Shown here: in pieces, positions 6,963 to 62,126 of the stretch
How the letters are laid out: each line of letters opens with the position of its first letter
Position numbering within the stretch: the stretch's first letter is position 1
NCBI GenBank assembly: GCA_964511025.1
Contig: CAZEDK010000001.1
Location: 24,191 to 88,190, forward strand
Direction: 5' to 3'
Length of the DNA stretch: 64,000 nucleotides
Source: an uncultured Candidatus Peribacteria bacterium
Lineage (GTDB): Bacteria > Patescibacteriota > Gracilibacteria > UBA1369 > GWF2-33-10
Made by a program: the position numbers and the translations under genes
Notes under the pieces: generated by a model
What the model was told of the DNA's origin: nothing
What the model saw: the letters and a program-made list of their open reading frames with translations, nothing else
Databases searched by the model: none

Positions 6963-7328
6963 TCATCTAAAATCACCCATTCTATCCAAAATCGCCTCTA
7001 TCGCAGCAAATATTTGAGAATAATATTTTGACTCCAGCTTCCCAATTTTTCTGATAATTCTTCTTTTATCGGCAACTCTTATTTGATCAAACATTAGTTT
7101 TGACATTTCTTCCAAGCCATTTTCTTTATTTGCACTGACAACTATTTCAAATGGATAAATCTTATTAACTTTTTTTGAAGTGAATGGAGCCAATAATACG
7201 GTTTGTGAAAAATTTAACCCGGCATTTGTCTGCAATATCAAACACGGTCTTAAACCTGCCTGCTCAACACCGCAAACAGGATCTAAACTCACAAAACAAA
7301 TATCAAATTGTCTTATATTATTAAGCAT
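6963..7328 (-). CDS. mazF: MazF/PemK-family endoribonuclease toxin
   Basis: 121 aa. FDICFVSLDPVCGVEQAGLRPCLILQTN matches the MazF/PemK N-terminal signature. The start overlaps the upstream antitoxin stop by 8 nt. Confidence 0.85.
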   Translation of the reverse strand: MLNNIRQFDICFVSLDPVCGVEQAGLRPCLILQTNAGLNFSQTVLLAPFTSKKVNKIYPFEIVVSANKENGLEEMSKLMFDQIRVADKRRIIRKIGKLESKYYSQIFAAIEAILDRMGDFR

Positions 7329-7931: not shown

Positions 7932-8294
7932 ATGGAAATCAAAAAATATGATATCTGGCTCGCCGATCTGAGTCCAAAAAAAGGTTCAACACAATCAGGA
8001 GTTAGACCTTGTATAATTTTACAAAGCAATCTTTTTAATAAAAATTCCAGCACTGTAATTTTAGTGGCACTTAGCACAAAAAAAATAAAACTTTATTCAA
8101 ATGAATTTATTATCAACGCTTCTTTATCAAATGGACTCAAAGAAAATTCAAGATTTCTAGGCAATCAGATAATTACACTAGATAAAAATTATATTCTCAA
8201 AAAACTAGGTTCACTCGAAGAAAAGTATTACAGCAAAGTCTATGAAGCACTAAATCTCTCACTCGATTTAGAAAATATGTTTTTGGAGTATTAG
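7932..8294 (+). CDS. mazF: MazF/PemK-family endoribonuclease toxin (second copy, divergent from the first module)
   Basis: 120 aa. YDIWLADLSPKKGSTQSGVRPCIILQSN parallels the first toxin. The last base of its TAG stop (G at 8294) is the first base of the inserted MITE. Confidence 0.85.
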   Translation: MEIKKYDIWLADLSPKKGSTQSGVRPCIILQSNLFNKNSSTVILVALSTKKIKLYSNEFIINASLSNGLKENSRFLGNQIITLDKNYILKKLGSLEEKYYSKVYEALNLSLDLENMFLEY

Positions 8295-8453
8295 GGTCTT
8301 GGCAAAAAATAAAACACCTACCTTGCACTATCTTTAGCTTTATTTTCTTTGTTGCAAATCCAGTCATTTATCTCGATAAACTCCTGTATTTGAACAAAAG
8401 AATCTAAAACAAAATCTAGCACAATTTAGGTATCTTATTTTTTACCAAGACCC
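8294..8453. mobile_element. MITE-like element, family 1, copy 1 (160 bp, about 27-bp terminal inverted repeats, TTA direct duplication)
   Basis: Ends are GGGTCTTGGCAAAAAATAAAACACCTA … TAGGTATCTTATTTTTTACCAAGACCC. It is flanked by TTA (8291-8293) and TTA (8454-8456). It differs at only 4 of 160 positions from the reverse complement of 38688-38847. Confidence 0.78.
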
Positions 8454-8556
8454 TTAAGCTTTTTTGAAACTTTTCCGAATTTCAAATAGTGTTAAACTAT
8501 GATATAATTAATAGAAGAGTTCTTTTGAGTAACTACTCACCGCTATTTGCATTCTT

Positions 8557-8689
8557 GTTTGTCATTCCAGACCTGATCTGGAATCCAGTAGGGTAAACTT
8601 GTTTGTATTTCAAATCTAAACAATGTTTCAAGGCTATCGCAACATAATGCGCAATTCCTAGATCCCAGACTGGATCTGGGATGACAAAC
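8557..8689. mobile_element. MITE-like element, family 2, copy A (hairpin-terminated, 133 bp)
   Basis: Left end GTTTGTCATTCCAGACCTGATCTGGAATCC. Right end GATCCCAGACTGGATCTGGGATGACAAAC, the inverted counterpart. Each end is itself an 8-bp-stem hairpin. The internal blocks (CAGTAGGG.AAACT, TATTTCAA, AGGCTATCGC) are shared with 12918-13040. Confidence 0.65.
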
Positions 8690-8739
8690 AATAAAGTTAA
8701 TAAGTTACAAAAAGCAGTGAGCAGTTACCATAAAGTAGT

Positions 8740-12917: not shown

Positions 12918-13040
12918 GTTTGTCATTCCTGCGCAGGCAGGAATCCAGTAGGGCAAACTATCTGTGTATTTCAAGTTACAAAGGCTATCGCGATGTAATT
13001 AGCAGTTCTGGATCCCAGATCGGAGTCTGGGATGACAAAT
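12918..13040. mobile_element. MITE-like element, family 2, copy B (123 bp), same orientation as copy A
   Basis: Ends are GTTTGTCATTCCTGCGCAGGCAGGAATCC … GATCCCAGATCGGAGTCTGGGATGACAAAT. It is flanked on both sides by ATTACCTTGTCATTC (12901-12915 and 13039-13053), which suggests insertion into a pre-existing solo hairpin unit. Confidence 0.65.
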
Positions 13041-13046
13041 TACCTT

Positions 13047-13071
13047 GTCATTCCTGCGAAGACAGGAATCC
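13047..13071 (+). repeat. Solo hairpin repeat unit (GTCATTCC-loop-GGAATCC), 15 nt from the GIY-YIG stop codon
   Basis: GTCATTCCTGCGAAGACAGGAATCC. It belongs to the same family as the left ends of the family-2 MITEs. Confidence 0.7.
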
Positions 13072-13086
13072 AATAGAGTCAACTGT

Positions 13087-13374
13087 CTAGAAATCTTCAT
13101 ACAAATCCTTCCAGCACGGATTCTCTTTTTCAATCAAATTTAACTTCCAAAGTCTTTTCCATGCTTTCATTTGTTTTTCTCTCTCAATAGCAAAATTGAT
13201 ATTTTCAAATTCTTCGTACCACACTAAATTTTTTACTTTGTATTTCTTTGTAAAGCCATCAATCAAACCTTCTTTGTGTTCATAAATTCTTCTTGATAAA
13301 TCATTTGTTACACCAATATACAAAGTTCCATTCTTTTTACTAGCTAAAATGTAGACATAGTATTTGTTAGACAT
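13087..13374 (-). CDS. Small GIY-YIG nuclease family protein (UPF0213/URI-domain type)
   Basis: 95 aa. YYVYILASKKNGTLYIGVTNDLSRRIYEHK carries the GIY…YIG motifs and the conserved R and E. ATG start at 13374. Confidence 0.9.
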   Translation of the reverse strand: MSNKYYVYILASKKNGTLYIGVTNDLSRRIYEHKEGLIDGFTKKYKVKNLVWYEEFENINFAIEREKQMKAWKRLWKLNLIEKENPCWKDLYEDF

Positions 13375-16924: not shown

Positions 16925-16953
16925 TGTACATAGCGATTAGCAATTGGCGACTC

Positions 16954-17157
16954 CTCTCAGTTCTCAACTCTCAGTTCTCAACTCTCAGCTCTCAGCTCTC
17001 AGCTCTCAACTCTCAGTTCTCAGCTCTCAGTTCTCAGCTCTCAGTTCTCAACTCTCAGTTCTCAGCTCTCAGTTCTCAGCTCTCAGCTCTCTCAGTCCCA
17101 AAGGGACCCCCTTGGGGCTCTCAGCTCTCAGCTCTCAGTTCTCAACTCTCAGTTCTC
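16954..17157. repeat. Heptanucleotide tandem array (CTCAGYT/CTCAACT, about 29 units) split by a GC-rich palindrome
   Basis: Read directly: ctcagtt ctcaact ctcagtt ctcaact ctcagct ctcagct … The central sequence CCCAAAGGGACCCCCTTGGGG lies at about 17097-17117. The array produces the spurious SQLSALSSQ ORFs in the track. Confidence 0.9.
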
Positions 17158-18166
17158 TATAAAAACCCTGCGCTATTTTACCTGCATTTTCCAATAACTG
17201 CAAAGCAGATTGAAAAGTTTGCATACCTTCTTTTTGTCCAATTTGCATTAACGAATAAATTTGTTTTGTTTTACCTTCGGCAATGCAGTTTTTGATACCG
17301 CTGCTTGCCATCATCACTTCACACGCAAGTATTCTGCGACTGTTATCTTTCGAAGCTATCAAATTTTGCGAAACAACACCTGCCAAAGTTGAAGACAGTT
17401 GCGTTTTGACCTGAACCTGCTGTGCTTCAGGAAAAACATCAATGATCCTGTCAATAGTTTGAGGTGCATCAATTGTATGCAAAGTTGAGAAAACCAGATG
17501 ACCGGTTTCAGCAAGAGTCAAAGCCGCTGAAATTGTTTCATAGTCACGCATTTCACCAATCATGACAACATCAGGATCCTCCCTGAGAGAAGATCTTATA
17601 GCATCCAAAAATGAAGAAGTATGATGACCTACCTCTCTTTGTGTAATCATAGCTTTTTTGCTTGTATGAAGAAATTCAATTGGGTCTTCGACAGTTACTA
17701 TGTGACAGGCTCTGTTTTGATTAATTAGATCAATAAGAGAAGCCAAAGTAGTACTTTTACCATTACCTGTAGGACCTGTAACCAGAACTAAACCTTTATT
17801 TAGAGTTGCAAAAGTTTTAACTGAATCCGGTAAATTCAAAGTGTTAATGTCTGGTACAACAGTTGGTATCACTCGAAAAGCCATGCAGTATCCTAAATAA
17901 TCATTATAAATATTGACTCGAAACCTTCCAAGTCCAGGAAGCTCGTAAGCTATATCAAGATCATGTTTAATAGAAAAACTATCTTTTTTATCACCCAAAA
18001 TTTCATCAATAAAAGCTTTGACATCTTCCGATTTAAGAGCGTCAATATTTGATGGGCGATATAAACTGCCATTACTAAGTCTTATTGTTGGCACGTGAGC
18101 AGCTTTAAAATGCACATCAGAAGCTTTGTGCTCTACAACTTGTTTGAGAATTTCTTTAAAATCCAT
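17135..18166 (-). CDS. pilT: Type IV pilus retraction ATPase PilT
   Basis: 343 aa. Walker A GPTGNGKSTT, MIGEMRD, and FSTLHT (His box). The size and the absence of an N-terminal GspE domain fit PilT. Confidence 0.9.
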   Translation of the reverse strand: MDFKEILKQVVEHKASDVHFKAAHVPTIRLSNGSLYRPSNIDALKSEDVKAFIDEILGDKKDSFSIKHDLDIAYELPGLGRFRVNIYNDYLGYCMAFRVIPTVVPDINTLNLPDSVKTFATLNKGLVLVTGPTGNGKSTTLASLIDLINQNRACHIVTVEDPIEFLHTSKKAMITQREVGHHTSSFLDAIRSSLREDPDVVMIGEMRDYETISAALTLAETGHLVFSTLHTIDAPQTIDRIIDVFPEAQQVQVKTQLSSTLAGVVSQNLIASKDNSRRILACEVMMASSGIKNCIAEGKTKQIYSLMQIGQKEGMQTFQSALQLLENAGKIAQGFYRELRVEN

Positions 18167-34490: not shown

Positions 34491-37340
34491 ATGATCCACA
34501 CCCTTTCCACCTTCCCAAAAGATCCAAACATTGATTATAAAGGAATCGGTTTACTTAATGACGCTCAAGAATTTCTCAAAATCAAAACTATTTCAGAAAT
34601 AAGAGCTGTTAAGAAGTTTTATCTCGAAGGTGTGAATGATGAAGAACTTTTGAAATTAAAAGATAAATTACTGGTTGAAGAAGTTTGGCAAGATTTCACG
34701 GTTGATAAAGATTTTTATAACAATCATCCAAATAAAATTGAAGTAGCTTTCAGAAAAGGCATGATGAACCCTGAGGTTCGAAGTCTTCTTGAAACCGCAC
34801 ATGAATTAGGTGTAACAAATTTACAAGCTGCAGATACATGCTGGGTCTACTATTTCTTTGGAAAAAATATAGATCAGAAAGAAATAGATAGCGTGATCAA
34901 TAAACTTGTAATGAATTCAACTACTGAAGAGATCAGAAAAGAGAATCCAGTAACACTTATAATTGAAGGATCAGAACACGAAATTGAAATTGTAAAAGTA
35001 AGAGAAATGAGTGATGAAGAACTTATGAAACTTTCAAAAAACACATTGTTTTTGACGCTCGATGAAATGCATACGATACAGAATTTCTTCAAGAATTTAG
35101 GTCGAGATCCATATGACTGTGAACTTGAAGTTTTGGCACAAAGCTGGTCAGAACACTGCGGACATAAGACTTTCAAAGCCAAACTTACAATCGACGGAAA
35201 AGAAGTTGAACCTCTATATCGAAGGCTCAAAAATGCGACGAAAGAAATCAATCACCCAAATGTAGTTTCAGCTTTCGTGGATAATTCCGGAGTGTGGAAA
35301 TTTGATGATAATTATGGAATATGTGGGAAAGTTGAGACTCACAATTCTCCTTCTGCTCTAGATCCATTTGGTGGAGCTGCAACAGGTAGCGGTGGAGTTT
35401 TCAGAGACATTGTTGGAACTGGTAAAGGAGCGAAAACAATTGCTTCAACTGATATATTTTGTGTAGGACAACCTGATATGGATGAATCTAAAATTCCAGA
35501 AGGATGCAAACATCCAAGATTTATTTTAAAAGGTTTGGTACGAGGTGTTTCCTCTTATGGGAATCCAATGGGTATTCCTACAACCAATGGCTCAGTACAT
35601 TTCCACGAAGATTTCAGATGCAAACCTACTGTAATTGTTGGAGCTTATGGATTAATAAAATTAGATAGAGCACAAAAAGGAGAAGCACAGGCTGGAAATT
35701 TGATCATGACTCTTGGTGGGAAAACAGGTCGTGATGGAATTCATGGCGCTACTTTTTCAAGCGCTGAAATGACAGGTGAAACATCTACAGTCAATTCTAC
35801 AGCAGTTCAAATTGGAGATCCGATTCAAGAAAAAAAAGTTTTTGATGCGATTTTGGATTTATCTGATCAGAATTTGATTAACGCAATTACAGATTGCGGG
35901 GCTGGAGGATTCTCATCAGCAATTGGTGAAATGGGAGCTATCACTGGAGTTGATGTTGAAATTTCAAAAGCTCCTCTCAAGTATAATGGACTTGCTCCAT
36001 GGGAAATCTGGCTTTCTGAGAGTCAAGAAAGAATGATCATTGCTGTTGATGGAAATAATTTAGATAAAATTCAAAAAGTTCTAGACAAACACTCCGTTGA
36101 AGGAGTTGTTTTGGGTAAATGTACCGAAGATGCTCAGTTAAAAATTACTTATAAAGGCAAAACTCTCGTTGATCTTCCAATGGAATTTGTTCATGAAGGA
36201 CTTAGTCAATTGAATCTTGAAGCGCATTTTGAAAAATCGAATTTTCCAGATCCGAGCGAAAATGAACTTATAAAAGAAAACTATACAGAAAGTTTACACA
36301 AAGTTTTGTCTCACCCGAATGTGTGCAGCAAAGAACCAATAATTGTAAGATATGATCACAATGTTCAGGGTACGGAAGTTCAGATGCCAATTTGTGGAAA
36401 CAAACATATTGGAGTCAATAATTCCAGCGTCCTTGAGCCTATTTTGGGTCATGGCAAGGGAATGATTATTTCTCATGGTTTAAATCCAATTTTAAATCGT
36501 ATTGATCCATATTTAGGTTCAAAATGGGCAATTTTTGAAGCTGTTTCCAACGCAATTTGCCAAGGAGCAAATCCCGAAAACACAGCTCTTATCGATAATT
36601 TCATTTGGCCAAAACCTGATAGTAAATTCATCGCTGACTTAAGTTTATCGATTGATGCCTGCTGTGATGTTTCAAAAATTTTCAAAATGCCATTTATATC
36701 TGGCAAAGACAGTCTGAGCTCGACATACAGAAAAGGTGATTTGACCGTTCATATTCCACCTGTGCTTTGTATTTCAACATTTGGGGTGGTGGATGATATT
36801 ACTAAAACAATTTCATCTCCATTCAAGAAAGCAGGGAATAAAATTTTATTAATTGGCGAGACAAAAGCTGAAATGGGAGGATCAATTTATTATGATATTA
36901 ATGGATACATTGGATCAAAAGTCCCAGATATCAATACTCAAATAGCATTAAAAACGTACAAAGCAATTTACAAAGCAATTCAGGAAGGTTTGATTAAATC
37001 TTGCCAAGATGTGAGTGAAGGAGGATTAGCGACAGCTGTGACTGAAATGTGTTTTGGATTTGATCTATGTGCTGAAATTGAATTAAATAAACTCTCAGTT
37101 CTCAGTTCTCAGTTCTCAGTTCTATTCTCAGAGAGTCCCGCCAGATTCATTTGCGAGGTAGAGACAAAAGATCTTTTGTCTCTAAAAGAAATTTTTGGAG
37201 ACATAGCTGTGAATATTATTGGTGAAATAAATAATTCAGATGAAATCGTTTTCAAAAGTAATGATGAAATTTTAATTCAAGATAAACGAGCAAATTTCAA
37301 AAAATCATGGCAACAACCAATGAGGAAGGTGTTTGGATAA
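34491..37340 (+). CDS. purL: Phosphoribosylformylglycinamidine synthase subunit PurL, with an N-terminal extension resembling PurS
   Basis: 949 aa. WSEHCGHKTF, ETHNSPSALDPFGGAATG and GKDSLS are PurL signatures. The extra about 200 N-terminal residues are discussed in the findings. Confidence 0.93.
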   Translation: MIHTLSTFPKDPNIDYKGIGLLNDAQEFLKIKTISEIRAVKKFYLEGVNDEELLKLKDKLLVEEVWQDFTVDKDFYNNHPNKIEVAFRKGMMNPEVRSLLETAHELGVTNLQAADTCWVYYFFGKNIDQKEIDSVINKLVMNSTTEEIRKENPVTLIIEGSEHEIEIVKVREMSDEELMKLSKNTLFLTLDEMHTIQNFFKNLGRDPYDCELEVLAQSWSEHCGHKTFKAKLTIDGKEVEPLYRRLKNATKEINHPNVVSAFVDNSGVWKFDDNYGICGKVETHNSPSALDPFGGAATGSGGVFRDIVGTGKGAKTIASTDIFCVGQPDMDESKIPEGCKHPRFILKGLVRGVSSYGNPMGIPTTNGSVHFHEDFRCKPTVIVGAYGLIKLDRAQKGEAQAGNLIMTLGGKTGRDGIHGATFSSAEMTGETSTVNSTAVQIGDPIQEKKVFDAILDLSDQNLINAITDCGAGGFSSAIGEMGAITGVDVEISKAPLKYNGLAPWEIWLSESQERMIIAVDGNNLDKIQKVLDKHSVEGVVLGKCTEDAQLKITYKGKTLVDLPMEFVHEGLSQLNLEAHFEKSNFPDPSENELIKENYTESLHKVLSHPNVCSKEPIIVRYDHNVQGTEVQMPICGNKHIGVNNSSVLEPILGHGKGMIISHGLNPILNRIDPYLGSKWAIFEAVSNAICQGANPENTALIDNFIWPKPDSKFIADLSLSIDACCDVSKIFKMPFISGKDSLSSTYRKGDLTVHIPPVLCISTFGVVDDITKTISSPFKKAGNKILLIGETKAEMGGSIYYDINGYIGSKVPDINTQIALKTYKAIYKAIQEGLIKSCQDVSEGGLATAVTEMCFGFDLCAEIELNKLSVLSSQFSVLFSESPARFICEVETKDLLSLKEIFGDIAVNIIGEINNSDEIVFKSNDEILIQDKRANFKKSWQQPMRKVFG
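37092..37133 (+). repeat. Heptanucleotide array (CTCAGTT x4-5) inserted in frame near the purL 3' end
   Basis: ctctcagttctcagttctcagttctcagttctattctcag encodes LSVLSSQFSVLFS. It belongs to the same unit family as 16954-17157 and 61651-61702. Confidence 0.85.
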
Positions 37341-37643: not shown

Positions 37644-38042
37644 ATGGAATATTTACTTGATACTAATATTTGTGTTTACTTAATAAATAAAAAAAACTAT
37701 AAACTTATTGATAAATTTGAAAGCGTAGATACAGAAAATATAAATATTTCAGCTATTACAGTGAGTGAATTAGAATATGGAATAGCAAAAAGTGAGTATC
37801 CAAATAAAAATCGTTTGGCATTAAATACATTTTTAACTCCACTAAATATTCTACCTTACGCTAATCATGTAGCTATATTGTACGGTGAAATAAGAGCATA
37901 TTTAGAAAAAAGAGGACAAGTAATAGGACCTTTGGATATGCTAATAGGGGCTCATTGCCTTTCGCTAAATCTTACTCTTGTCACAAACAACGAAAAAGAA
38001 TTTAACCGTATACCGAATTTGAGGGTTGAGAATTGGATTTGA
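37644..38042 (+). CDS. vapC: VapC PIN-domain ribonuclease toxin
   Basis: MEYLLDTNICVYL (first acidic PIN residue), SAITVSELEYG, and LTLVTNNEKEF near the C-terminus. Confidence 0.9.
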   Translation: MEYLLDTNICVYLINKKNYKLIDKFESVDTENINISAITVSELEYGIAKSEYPNKNRLALNTFLTPLNILPYANHVAILYGEIRAYLEKRGQVIGPLDMLIGAHCLSLNLTLVTNNEKEFNRIPNLRVENWI

Positions 38043-38048
38043 AATAAA

Positions 38049-38161: not shown

Positions 38162-38431
38162 ATGACTACACAACTATCAATCAAAACAGATCCAAGGATT
38201 AAACAAGCCGCATCAAAACGGGCTGAATATGAAGGGATGACGCTAACCGCAATAGTAAATGTTTTTTTACGAGAGTATGCACATGGTAAATTTCAATTAA
38301 GTTTTATGAATATTGAAAATCAGCAACTATCAAAAGAATCTATTATGGAGTTTGATGAGATTTTTAAAAGTAAAAAAATTGTATCAAAGGCAAATCAAAT
38401 ATCACAGTATCTAAATAATCATAAATTGTAA
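38162..38431 (+). CDS. Putative antitoxin-like small protein (possible RHH)
   Basis: 89 aa. TTQLSIKTDPRIKQAASKRAEYEGMTLTAIVNVFLREY looks like an RHH/antitoxin. Its stop overlaps a downstream ATG (TAATG). Confidence 0.5.
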   Translation: MTTQLSIKTDPRIKQAASKRAEYEGMTLTAIVNVFLREYAHGKFQLSFMNIENQQLSKESIMEFDEIFKSKKIVSKANQISQYLNNHKL

Positions 38432-38686
38432 TGTTAATTTTAACTGAGTTTTTTCAAAAATATGAGTTAAATAAAGTTTCTAAATATTTTGACATAAAAG
38501 ATATTCAAATTCAAAGAAAATTATTTCATCCCAATCATTATTAGGCTGAAAAAAGATAAACTTATCGGTGAGAATTTATCTTTGAATAACAAATTGGCAG
38601 AAGCAAAAATCATATATAATCTCGAAATGATATTTGAAGATTTAAAAAATGATAAATATAGAAAACTACCTTTATAAAATTCCGTT
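38431..38686 (+). pseudogene. Possible degraded toxin partner (short ORF interrupted by a stop or frameshift)
   Basis: The ATG overlaps the antitoxin stop. It reads MLILTEFFQKYELNKVSKYFDIKDIQIQRKLFHPNHY-stop. A second frame then continues LKKDKLIGENLSLNNKLAEAKIIYNLEMIFEDLKNDKYRKLPL. No family was recognised. Confidence 0.25.
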
Positions 38687-38687
38687 A

Positions 38688-38847
38688 GGGTCTTGGCAAA
38701 AAATAAGATACCTAAATTGTGCTAGATTTTGTTTTAGATTCTTTTGTTCAAATACAGGAGTTTATCGAGATAAATGACTGAATTTGCAACAAAGAAGATA
38801 ACGCTAAAGATAGTGCAAGGTAGGTGTTTTATTTTTTGCCAAGACCC
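38688..38847. mobile_element. MITE-like element, family 1, copy 2 (inverted relative to copy 1)
   Basis: Flanked by TTA (38685-38687) and TTA (38848-38850). 156 of 160 positions are identical to the reverse complement of 8294-8453. Confidence 0.78.
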
Positions 38848-38852
38848 TTAGA

Positions 38853-38925
38853 CCTGACTCTTGTCACAAACAACGAAAAAGAATTTAACCGTATACCGAA
38901 TTTGAAAGTTGAGAATTGGGTTTAA
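38853..38925 (+). pseudogene. 3' fragment of a second vapC gene
   Basis: CCTGACTCTTGTCACAAACAACGAAAAAGAATTTAACCGTATACCGAATTTGAAAGTTGAGAATTGGGTTTAA is about 90% identical to vapC 37971-38042 and includes the stop. Only the last about 24 codons are present. Confidence 0.7.
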
Positions 38926-61178: not shown

Positions 61179-62126
61179 CTAGAATCTATTTATAACACTC
61201 CCTCCACCTATAGCAATAGCATGAGACGCATTTTTTGGCACATATACTTCAATTTCATGTTCTTTTAAAAGTTTCCTGATTGCATCCAAAATCTCTTCCA
61301 TCAAAATCAATTTTCCGACCAATATCACTTCTTTTACCATATAAGCTTTTGTGGCAAATATGATATTGGTTGCTATAGCCTGAGCAACTAAATTAACTAT
61401 ACCTACAGCTAAATCAGCCTTACTAAAATCAATATTTCTAACTAATTTCCCCAAATTTGAAGCTGTATTATCTTGCGACACAATACCTATTGAAGATCCA
61501 ACTATCTCACCAACACTTAAATCTACTTTTTTAATATCCCCCTTTTTAAACATTTCCTTCAGCTTCAAAATATCTGTTTCACCAAGTATTTCTTTGCACA
61601 AACCCAAAAAAGTTCCACCACCAATCCCCGTGCCACCAATATGCTGGACAGAGAGCTGAGAGCTGAGAGCTGAGAACTGAGAACTGAGAACTGAGAACTG
61701 AGTTCGCGGAGTATTTACTTCCACCTCAGCTCTCAGCTCCCCGCCAGAATGATGTCGGGCTGGTCGACTCTCAGTTCTAACTAAAACCATACATGTCCCC
61801 GTCCCCATACTAACCGTCAAGAACTTATCTTCTCTCAAATCATTTTTTGCTAAATAATAAGCTCCTCTGCCGATAGCATCTATTTCTGGAATTTTAGTTA
61901 TATCTATATTAGATATGCTATTTTCAAAAAATTGTGTTTTACCACCTGTAATAAATATTTTATCTATATTTTTCAAAGAAATTTTGCTTTTTGTAAAAAA
62001 ATCTCTTACCGAATTAACAGATTTAAACTGAAGCGCTTCAAAACTCTTTATTTCATTTATTAAAGAATTTTTCCATACAACCATATCAACAGTAGACGCC
62101 CCAAAATCAAAAGAATAATACTTCAT
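61179..62126 (-). CDS. coaW: Type II pantothenate kinase-like ASKHA ATPase (CoaW/fumble family) carrying an in-frame repeat insertion
   Basis: DFGASTVD (phosphate-1), ITGGK, VSMGTGTC and GGTGIGGGTFLGL, plus a C-terminal AIAIGGG. The order matches staphylococcal-type PanK. About 40 extra residues lie between GTGT and GGTGIGGG. Confidence 0.78.
   Translation of the reverse strand: MKYYSFDFGASTVDMVVWKNSLINEIKSFEALQFKSVNSVRDFFTKSKISLKNIDKIFITGGKTQFFENSISNIDITKIPEIDAIGRGAYYLAKNDLREDKFLTVSMGTGTCMVLVRTESRPARHHSGGELRAEVEVNTPRTQFSVLSSQFSALSSQLSVQHIGGTGIGGGTFLGLCKEILGETDILKLKEMFKKGDIKKVDLSVGEIVGSSIGIVSQDNTASNLGKLVRNIDFSKADLAVGIVNLVAQAIATNIIFATKAYMVKEVILVGKLILMEEILDAIRKLLKEHEIEVYVPKNASHAIAIGGGSVINRF
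61645..61781. repeat. Composite repeat insertion inside coaW (heptamer array, inverted arm, GC-rich 24-nt core)
   Basis: AGCTGAG/AACTGAG x7 at 61651-61702. Inverted arm CTCAGCTCTCAGCTC at 61725-61739. Core CCCGCCAG-N7-TCGGGCTGG at 61740-61763. CTCTCAGTTCT at 61768-61778. Confidence 0.85.

Follow-up and report, generated by a model that had tools for sequence, protein, structure and literature searches.

The window, by which we mean the whole stretch of 64,000 nucleotides analysed here (G000:C1:24191-88190), belongs to the 1.56-Mb, 82-contig assembly of an uncultured Candidatus Peribacteria bacterium, a fragmented MAG that stands for a CPR genome of roughly 1.5 Mb. Two copies of a 160-bp MITE lie in it in opposite orientations, the first at the end of a mazF toxin gene and the second beside the remnant of a vapC gene. 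The features of the two loci, in the coordinates of the window, are as follows.

6966-7328: divergent ORF that is also a full-length PemK/MazF toxin
7932-8294, + strand: second mazF (PemK_toxin) gene, full-length PemK/MazF match, with stop codon TAG at 8292-8294
8291-8293, unstranded: left target-site duplication of copy 1, TTA, equal to 8454-8456
8294-8453, + strand: MITE copy 1, 160 bp, subfamily A; four other copies in the genome are identical to it
8294-8320, + strand: left terminal inverted repeat of copy 1; its first 19 nt pair with 8435-8453 with a single C·A mismatch
8427-8453, + strand: right terminal inverted repeat of copy 1
8454-8456, unstranded: right target-site duplication of copy 1, TTA, in the right flank
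38685-38687, unstranded: target-site duplication in one flank of copy 2, TTA on the + strand
38688-38847, - strand: MITE copy 2, 160 bp, subfamily A, with 4 differences from copy 1
38848-38850, unstranded: target-site duplication in the other flank of copy 2, TTA on the + strand
38851-38925, + strand: 3' fragment of a vapC (PIN) paralogue, in which homology to the intact vapC (37644-38042) begins at the MITE boundary

The preliminary description of this DNA had proposed two inverted 160-bp copies differing at four positions, bounded by terminal inverted repeats of about 27 bp and devoid of an internal ORF, and alignment of both stretches of the window, together with the ORF list, agrees with it on each of these points. 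The left repeat reads GGGTCTTGGCAAAAAATAAAACACCTA and the right arm, as reverse complement, GGGTCTTGGTAAAAAATAAGATACCTA; 24 of the 27 positions match in copy 1, and within the repeats a 19-nt core, GGGTCTTGGCAAAAAATAA, is kept in 16/16 full copies of the genome. The search for ORFs inside the element returned none of note, the only overlapping frames being short and attributable to chance. The whole element forms a single long hairpin (dG -44.6 kcal/mol, z -7.7 relative to shuffled sequences). Directly beyond the flanking triplet the alignment of copies 1 and 2 collapses, their outer flanks being unrelated. When the flanks are read in the orientation of the element, copy 1 has TTA/TTA and copy 2 TAA/TAA (both are TTA on the + strand), and the duplicated target is consequently TWA and not always TTA.

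It had also been claimed that copy 1 sits exactly on the stop codon of the second mazF and that its removal restores a TAA stop. The restoration stands: deletion of 8294-8456 (163 bp) gives ...TAT TAA, which leaves the same protein and places the mazF stop TAA at the same codon. The exact placement does not, in that duplication and stop share only two bases (...TAT|TAA); the TAG that now ends the frame takes its TA from the duplication and its G from the first position of the element. Ninety bp downstream of copy 1 there is a second palindromic repeat, TTGTCATTCC...GGAATCCAGTAGGG (8547-8702), which is unrelated in sequence to the MITE, recurs at 12920-12963 and 13045-13088, and gives sub-threshold WsnRNA46 matches on both strands. 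Elsewhere in the window, at 16940-17185, 37090-37139 and 61648-61702, a 7-nt unit (CTCTCAG/TTCTCAG) is repeated in tandem.

Copy 2 does adjoin a vapC fragment, as had been reported. This is a tail of 77 bp with 91% identity to 37966-38043, the 3' end of the intact PIN-domain vapC, and the intact paralogue carries an out-of-frame TAA at the position homologous to the copy 2 junction. Within 38431-38925 the copy separates the second toxin-antitoxin cassette from the orphan vapC tail and falls precisely where the two meet; the toxin ORF of that second cassette looks broken, being split into pieces of 37 and 31 aa. To judge from its position, the junction may derive from a rearrangement between two MITE copies (MITE-mediated deletion or recombination). 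The matching flanks of copy 2 are compatible with such an event, since TTA or TAA flanks almost every copy.

Further copies, which the preliminary description had anticipated, are numerous in the full assembly, where 16 full elements, one 5'-truncated element, three pieces at contig ends and one solo left end make up 21 loci, a recurrence of the 160-mer that chance does not account for; the 16 full and 5 partial copies are spread over 15 contigs. Two subfamilies are separated by 13 positions: A, with 9 copies, of which copy 1 and four others are identical, and B, with 7, which are 97-100% alike. The recent mobility that had been deduced from the near-identity of the window pair is supported by these five identical copies and two tight subfamilies, which speak for recent bursts of movement. 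Except for the triplet, the flanks are unrelated in all copies. In the orientation of the element, the full copies show the following left and right triplets.

TTA / TTA: 9 copies
TAA / TAA: 5 copies
TAA / TTA: 1 copy (C40)
CTA / TTA: 1 copy (G000:C24)

Left and right triplets are equal in 14/16 full copies (permutation p = 0.0013 against shuffled pairings), and the flanking triplet is therefore not coincidental. The direct repeat of TTA that had been noted on each side is a true target duplication, but its target has to be restated as TWA (TTA or TAA), occasionally CTA. The mismatch at G000:C24 suggests that two elements were inserted side by side; at G000:C24:1-56 the CTA/TTA copy is preceded by TGACTACACTGCC, which resembles TGACTACGCTGCC, the end of an unassembled insertion sequence.

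A search for an empty site yielded one. The copy at G000:C45:7058-7217 splits a gene, and once 160+3 bp are removed, two ORFs (195 and 281 aa) become a single one of 556 aa, with a Cys-rich repeat motif that runs unbroken across the junction. Its closest relative, G002:C42:14280-15896 from a genome of the same family, shows 73% identity and is uninterrupted over residues 2-553; the own-genome match to this relative breaks at residue 182/186. With the 163 bp taken out, the DNA at the C45 junction is colinear, codon for codon, with the uninterrupted orthologue (LYGCISCQSC in the genome under study, LYECISCQSC in G002). The comparison is direct evidence that the element was inserted with a 3-bp duplication. 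The interrupted gene (G000:C45:6508-8341) and its relatives (L184, L186) encode Cys-rich proteins of ~550 aa that match nothing in Pfam. Their paralogous family is large, and in most families of the order a genome has up to ~20 members of it, often arranged in tandem.

Outside this genome, the whole element was absent from all 60 close relatives searched. When about 400 genomes of the phylum were searched with the terminal core as a pattern, one genome of the same class stood out, namely G369 (Candidatus Peribacteria, CAZQFO01), with 86 matches against 5 for a reversed control. Two families of MITEs are found there.

G369 family 1: ~155 bp, termini GGGCTTGGGAAAAAATAA
G369 family 2: ~206 bp, termini GGGTTCTGGAAAAAAATAA at one end and GGGAyCT.GAAAAAAATAA at the other

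Their flanks are TTA/TAA, left and right matching in 18/25 examined copies. The two families resemble the window MITE in the core GGGnCTTGG.AAAAAATAA, in their TTA/TAA duplications, in size and in having no visible partner, but they differ from it in an unrelated interior, a higher copy number and the lack of an exact-stop bias (3/25). These likenesses make the window MITE one family of a wider group of T-W-A MITEs in the class. Pairs of termini lying 0.4-3.5 kb apart in G369 were considered as an autonomous element and rejected, being only neighbouring MITEs. Several further observations concern transposase genes in G369 and its class. On contig C118 of G369 (locus L200), a related-family MITE of ~205 bp is inserted in, and truncates, a RAYT-like Y1_Tnp gene (L200:445-649), and a Y1_Tnp (IS200/RAYT-like) domain lies in frame inside a leucyl-tRNA synthetase ORF (L200:2341-4500, an open frame of 1028 aa); another Y1_Tnp domain lies inside a 1415-aa ORF at G369:C85:4276-4509. 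On contig C1 of another genome of the class, G470, there are nine copies of an IS5-like transposase (L132, L135-L140), each with 15-16 in-frame TGA codons, a pattern compatible with a lineage in which TGA is a sense codon.

To describe the insertion sites, genes were approximated by long ORFs on the genome with the MITEs removed. Six of the 16 full copies have as their target the stop codon of an ORF of at least 112 aa, the stop being rebuilt by the duplication, while copy 1 and the C40 copy (both TAT|TAA) are counted here as overlapping a stop by one base. Other full copies include one that lies 2 nt past a stop, one 16 nt past a stop and one inside a gene. Of the five partial copies, one coincides with a stop and two more lie no further than 8 nt from one; taking all insertion loci together, 7/21 target a stop codon exactly and 5 more fall within 8 nt. 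For the 7 exact matches among 18 non-coding loci, p is ~1e-5 when compared with all non-coding TWA sites and 0.003 when compared with sites nearer a stop than a start. The proximity of copies to the 3' ends of genes is real, and exact use of the stop codon is significant in this genome. In G369, 10/25 copies lie within 16 nt of a stop and 3/25 are on one (p = 0.12-0.58); because the exact bias is not reproduced there, we do not claim stop-codon homing for the superfamily.

The statement that the window holds no cognate transposase proved correct, and none was found in the whole assembly either. There are no pairs of termini more than 200 bp apart in the assembly. A longer autonomous element with the same termini was not recovered from the assembly, from public collections (GTDB species genomes, JGI metagenome contigs and IMG/VR) or from ~460 related genomes, these being the 60 close relatives and the ~400 genomes of the phylum, in which no partner element was seen apart from the G369 MITEs. 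Scans for the exact pattern of the 19-nt terminal core returned 19 (GTDB), 48 (JGI) and 12 (IMG/VR) single matches; none extends beyond ~25 nt and none forms an inverted pair, and by our estimate ~17 would be expected by chance in the genome scan. A hunt by domain (PF01609, PF13359, PF13586, PF13340 and PF01797) found IS4/IS1634-like, IS630-like, IS5-group-like and RAYT-like genes, not one of which (0) has MITE termini. The DDE-type genes of the genome are these.

G000:C3:55154-56089, at the end of contig C3: IS5-group-like gene (DDE_Tnp_1), the only IS5-family gene of the genome
C3:47509, C82 and C70: IS4/IS1634-like genes (DDE_Tnp_1)
G000:C70:848-1417: IS630-like (DDE_3) gene fragment
C73: DDE_Tnp_1 gene fragment

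PF13359 matches only the IS5-group gene, which is without its first ~57 residues and is cut by another repeat and by the contig end, and PF13586 and PF13340 (the domains of IS427/IS1031/ISL2 type) are absent from the genome and from G369. The solo terminus at C53:5062 was examined as the possible start of an autonomous element and rejected, the genes that follow it encoding AAA-ATPases and no transposase. Two sets of identical 55-bp contig ends imply that at least two multi-copy insertion sequences, of about 5-6 copies each, are missing from the bin, and because the bin is blind to multi-copy elements, the missing partner amounts to absence of evidence and not to proof of absence. The first set comprises C1:1-54, the end of C3 (L129), C21, C23, C25 and C73, and also C38, C44, C47, C50 and C61; the second comprises C4, C44, C49 and C58, with C27, C29, C33, C54 and C74. 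Each of the two insertion sequences accounts for 11 contig ends. The ends of the two missing insertion sequences, TATACTAAAAAGAAAGTGG / TATACTAAAAACAAAATGG and GGCAGCGTAGTCATTTGG / GGTAGCGTAGTCAAAATGG, have no resemblance to the MITE, and one of the two interrupts the IS5-like transposase gene and another transposase fragment.

We regard it as highly probable that the element is a genuine, recently active MITE that makes a 3-bp T-W-A duplication and is moved in trans, most likely by a DDE transposase of IS5/Harbinger type. On this account a transposase supplied in trans would excise the element and paste it into a T-W-A triplet; the target would be cut with a 3-nt stagger, and repair would duplicate the triplet on both sides. 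Amplification took place in at least two recent bursts, represented by subfamilies A and B, and the enzyme behind them would most likely be of IS5 / PIF-Harbinger type. Surviving copies are found mainly at the 3' ends of genes, where a TAA stop taken as target is rebuilt by the duplication and the gene left unharmed. The sequences themselves establish that the element is mobile, how long its duplication is, how many copies and subfamilies there are and how the sites are distributed; the family of the transposase, its supply in trans and the reason for the bias to stop codons are deductions.

How the copies came to lie at stop codons admits of two accounts. The simplest reading combines a TWA target with the persistence of those insertions that do no harm where genes are densely packed. 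It is doubtful, on the other hand, that the TWA MITEs of Peregrinibacteria actively choose stop codons or the adjacent DNA, driven by a transposase that is either not encoded in the carrier or of an unrecognised family. If true, this would represent a 'safe-harbour' strategy fitted to CPR genomes, which are tiny and densely packed with genes, and clustering at stops through target choice would offer a transposon a neat route to persistence where the genome has hardly any DNA to spare; the data do not separate such choice from survivorship. A literature search for MITEs biased towards stop codons found nothing specific.

Alternatives to the origin of the element itself are less credible. It is very unlikely that the MITE derives from an IS630/Tc1-mariner element and, like Stowaway, duplicates TA, with the third base of the triplet belonging to the element. 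Such a derivation could appeal to the TA that adjoins, or lies one base from, the terminus in every flank, to the DDE_3 fragment on C70 (848-1417), and to the mismatched flanks (TAA/TTA at C40, and several in G369), which can be parsed as TA + A...T + TA. We reject duplication of TA only, because identical copies would then need variable, anti-correlated ends, some with one more A at the left and others with one more T at the right. The end states are indeed almost perfectly anti-correlated (9 TTA/TTA, 5 TAA/TAA, 1 TAA/TTA and 0 TTA/TAA), as a 3-bp TWA duplication predicts, and the IS630-like fragment is without matching termini.

Less probable again is the view that the element is in the first place a structured RNA with a function, or a hairpin that regulates (for instance a 3'-UTR stabiliser or a terminator), and happens to be repeated. 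Target duplications and the insertion inside a gene are contrary to this idea, as is the confinement of the element to one genome among 60 relatives, although the fold is very stable (z -7.7) and copies cluster just past stop codons. Compensatory change affects 2/51 predicted pairs across ten distinct sequences, both of them in the putative transposase-binding termini, and the element contains no T-tract and no promoter or terminator motif. An Rfam scan of the element reached 45 bits at best against a threshold of 140 bits, with plant miRNA hairpin models only; sub-threshold matches of this kind are expected for any long A+T hairpin. The hairpin may nevertheless have a secondary, co-opted role. 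Least probable of all is an origin as a REPIN-like hairpin whose spread depended on a REP-associated tyrosine (HUH, RAYT) transposase. The long hairpin would suit such an origin, as would one RAYT-like Y1_Tnp gene (208 aa) at G000:C12:30198-30821 and the many more in G369, but a 3-bp duplication is shown here while HUH transposases are not known to make target duplications, no MITE terminus lies beside any RAYT-like gene (that at C12:30198-30821 included), and one such gene of G369 is itself interrupted by a MITE (L200:445-649).

A mobile MITE with a T-W-A target bears both on the biology of the organism and on its annotation. A very small, gene-dense CPR genome hosts a recently active non-autonomous transposon in ~20 copies, and a sister lineage has dozens of related ones. 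For annotation, the copies explain assembly breaks, one split Cys-rich gene and changed stop codons (TAA to TAG in mazF), and possibly also the recombination scar at the stacked toxin-antitoxin cassettes.

The element is a new family of a well-known kind. Among bacterial MITEs, which include Correia/NEMIS of Neisseria, RUP of Streptococcus pneumoniae, ERIC and MITEAba12 (review PMC2229807), the window element has many counterparts: like them it is A+T-rich, codes for no protein, measures less than 200 bp, carries inverted repeats at its termini, duplicates a short target, forms a hairpin from end to end, and exists in many near-identical copies that are mostly intergenic and occasionally inserted in genes. 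It departs from them in that most duplicate TA or a longer target whereas it duplicates T-W-A, and in that several have a named partner IS (RUP with IS630-Spn1) while none was found for the window element. Our search of the literature for MITEs in CPR/Patescibacteria returned no description.

The class itself contains IS5-group insertion sequences, in G492 (locus L130), in G459 (locus L131) and, truncated, at G000:C3:55154-56089. The intact relatives (G492 and G459) have termini GGAAyCTCTGAAAAAy, which match the MITE terminus GGGTCTTGGCAAAAAAT at ~13/17 positions with the common pattern GG..TCT..G.AAAAAT. Like the MITE, these elements insert into TTAA/TAA-like A+T sites; they differ from it in length (1.18-1.2 kb) and in their 4-bp duplications (TTAA), where those of the MITE are of 3 bp. 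Duplications of the latter length are characteristic of the IS1031, ISL2 and IS427 groups of the IS5 family, which duplicate TNA, and of eukaryotic PIF/Harbinger elements and their Tourist MITEs, which duplicate TWA. An affinity with the IS5 group, hinted at in the preliminary description, gains from the 3-bp TWA duplication and the partial resemblance of the termini and loses from the lack of a partner; since no transposase of the IS5 (IS1031/ISL2/IS427) or PIF/Harbinger groups is detectable in the genome or in G369, we infer membership from the footprint alone. That footprint is nonetheless one that the window MITE has in common with both groups, in the 3-bp T-N/W-A duplication, in termini that start with GG and in the occurrence of small non-autonomous derivatives.
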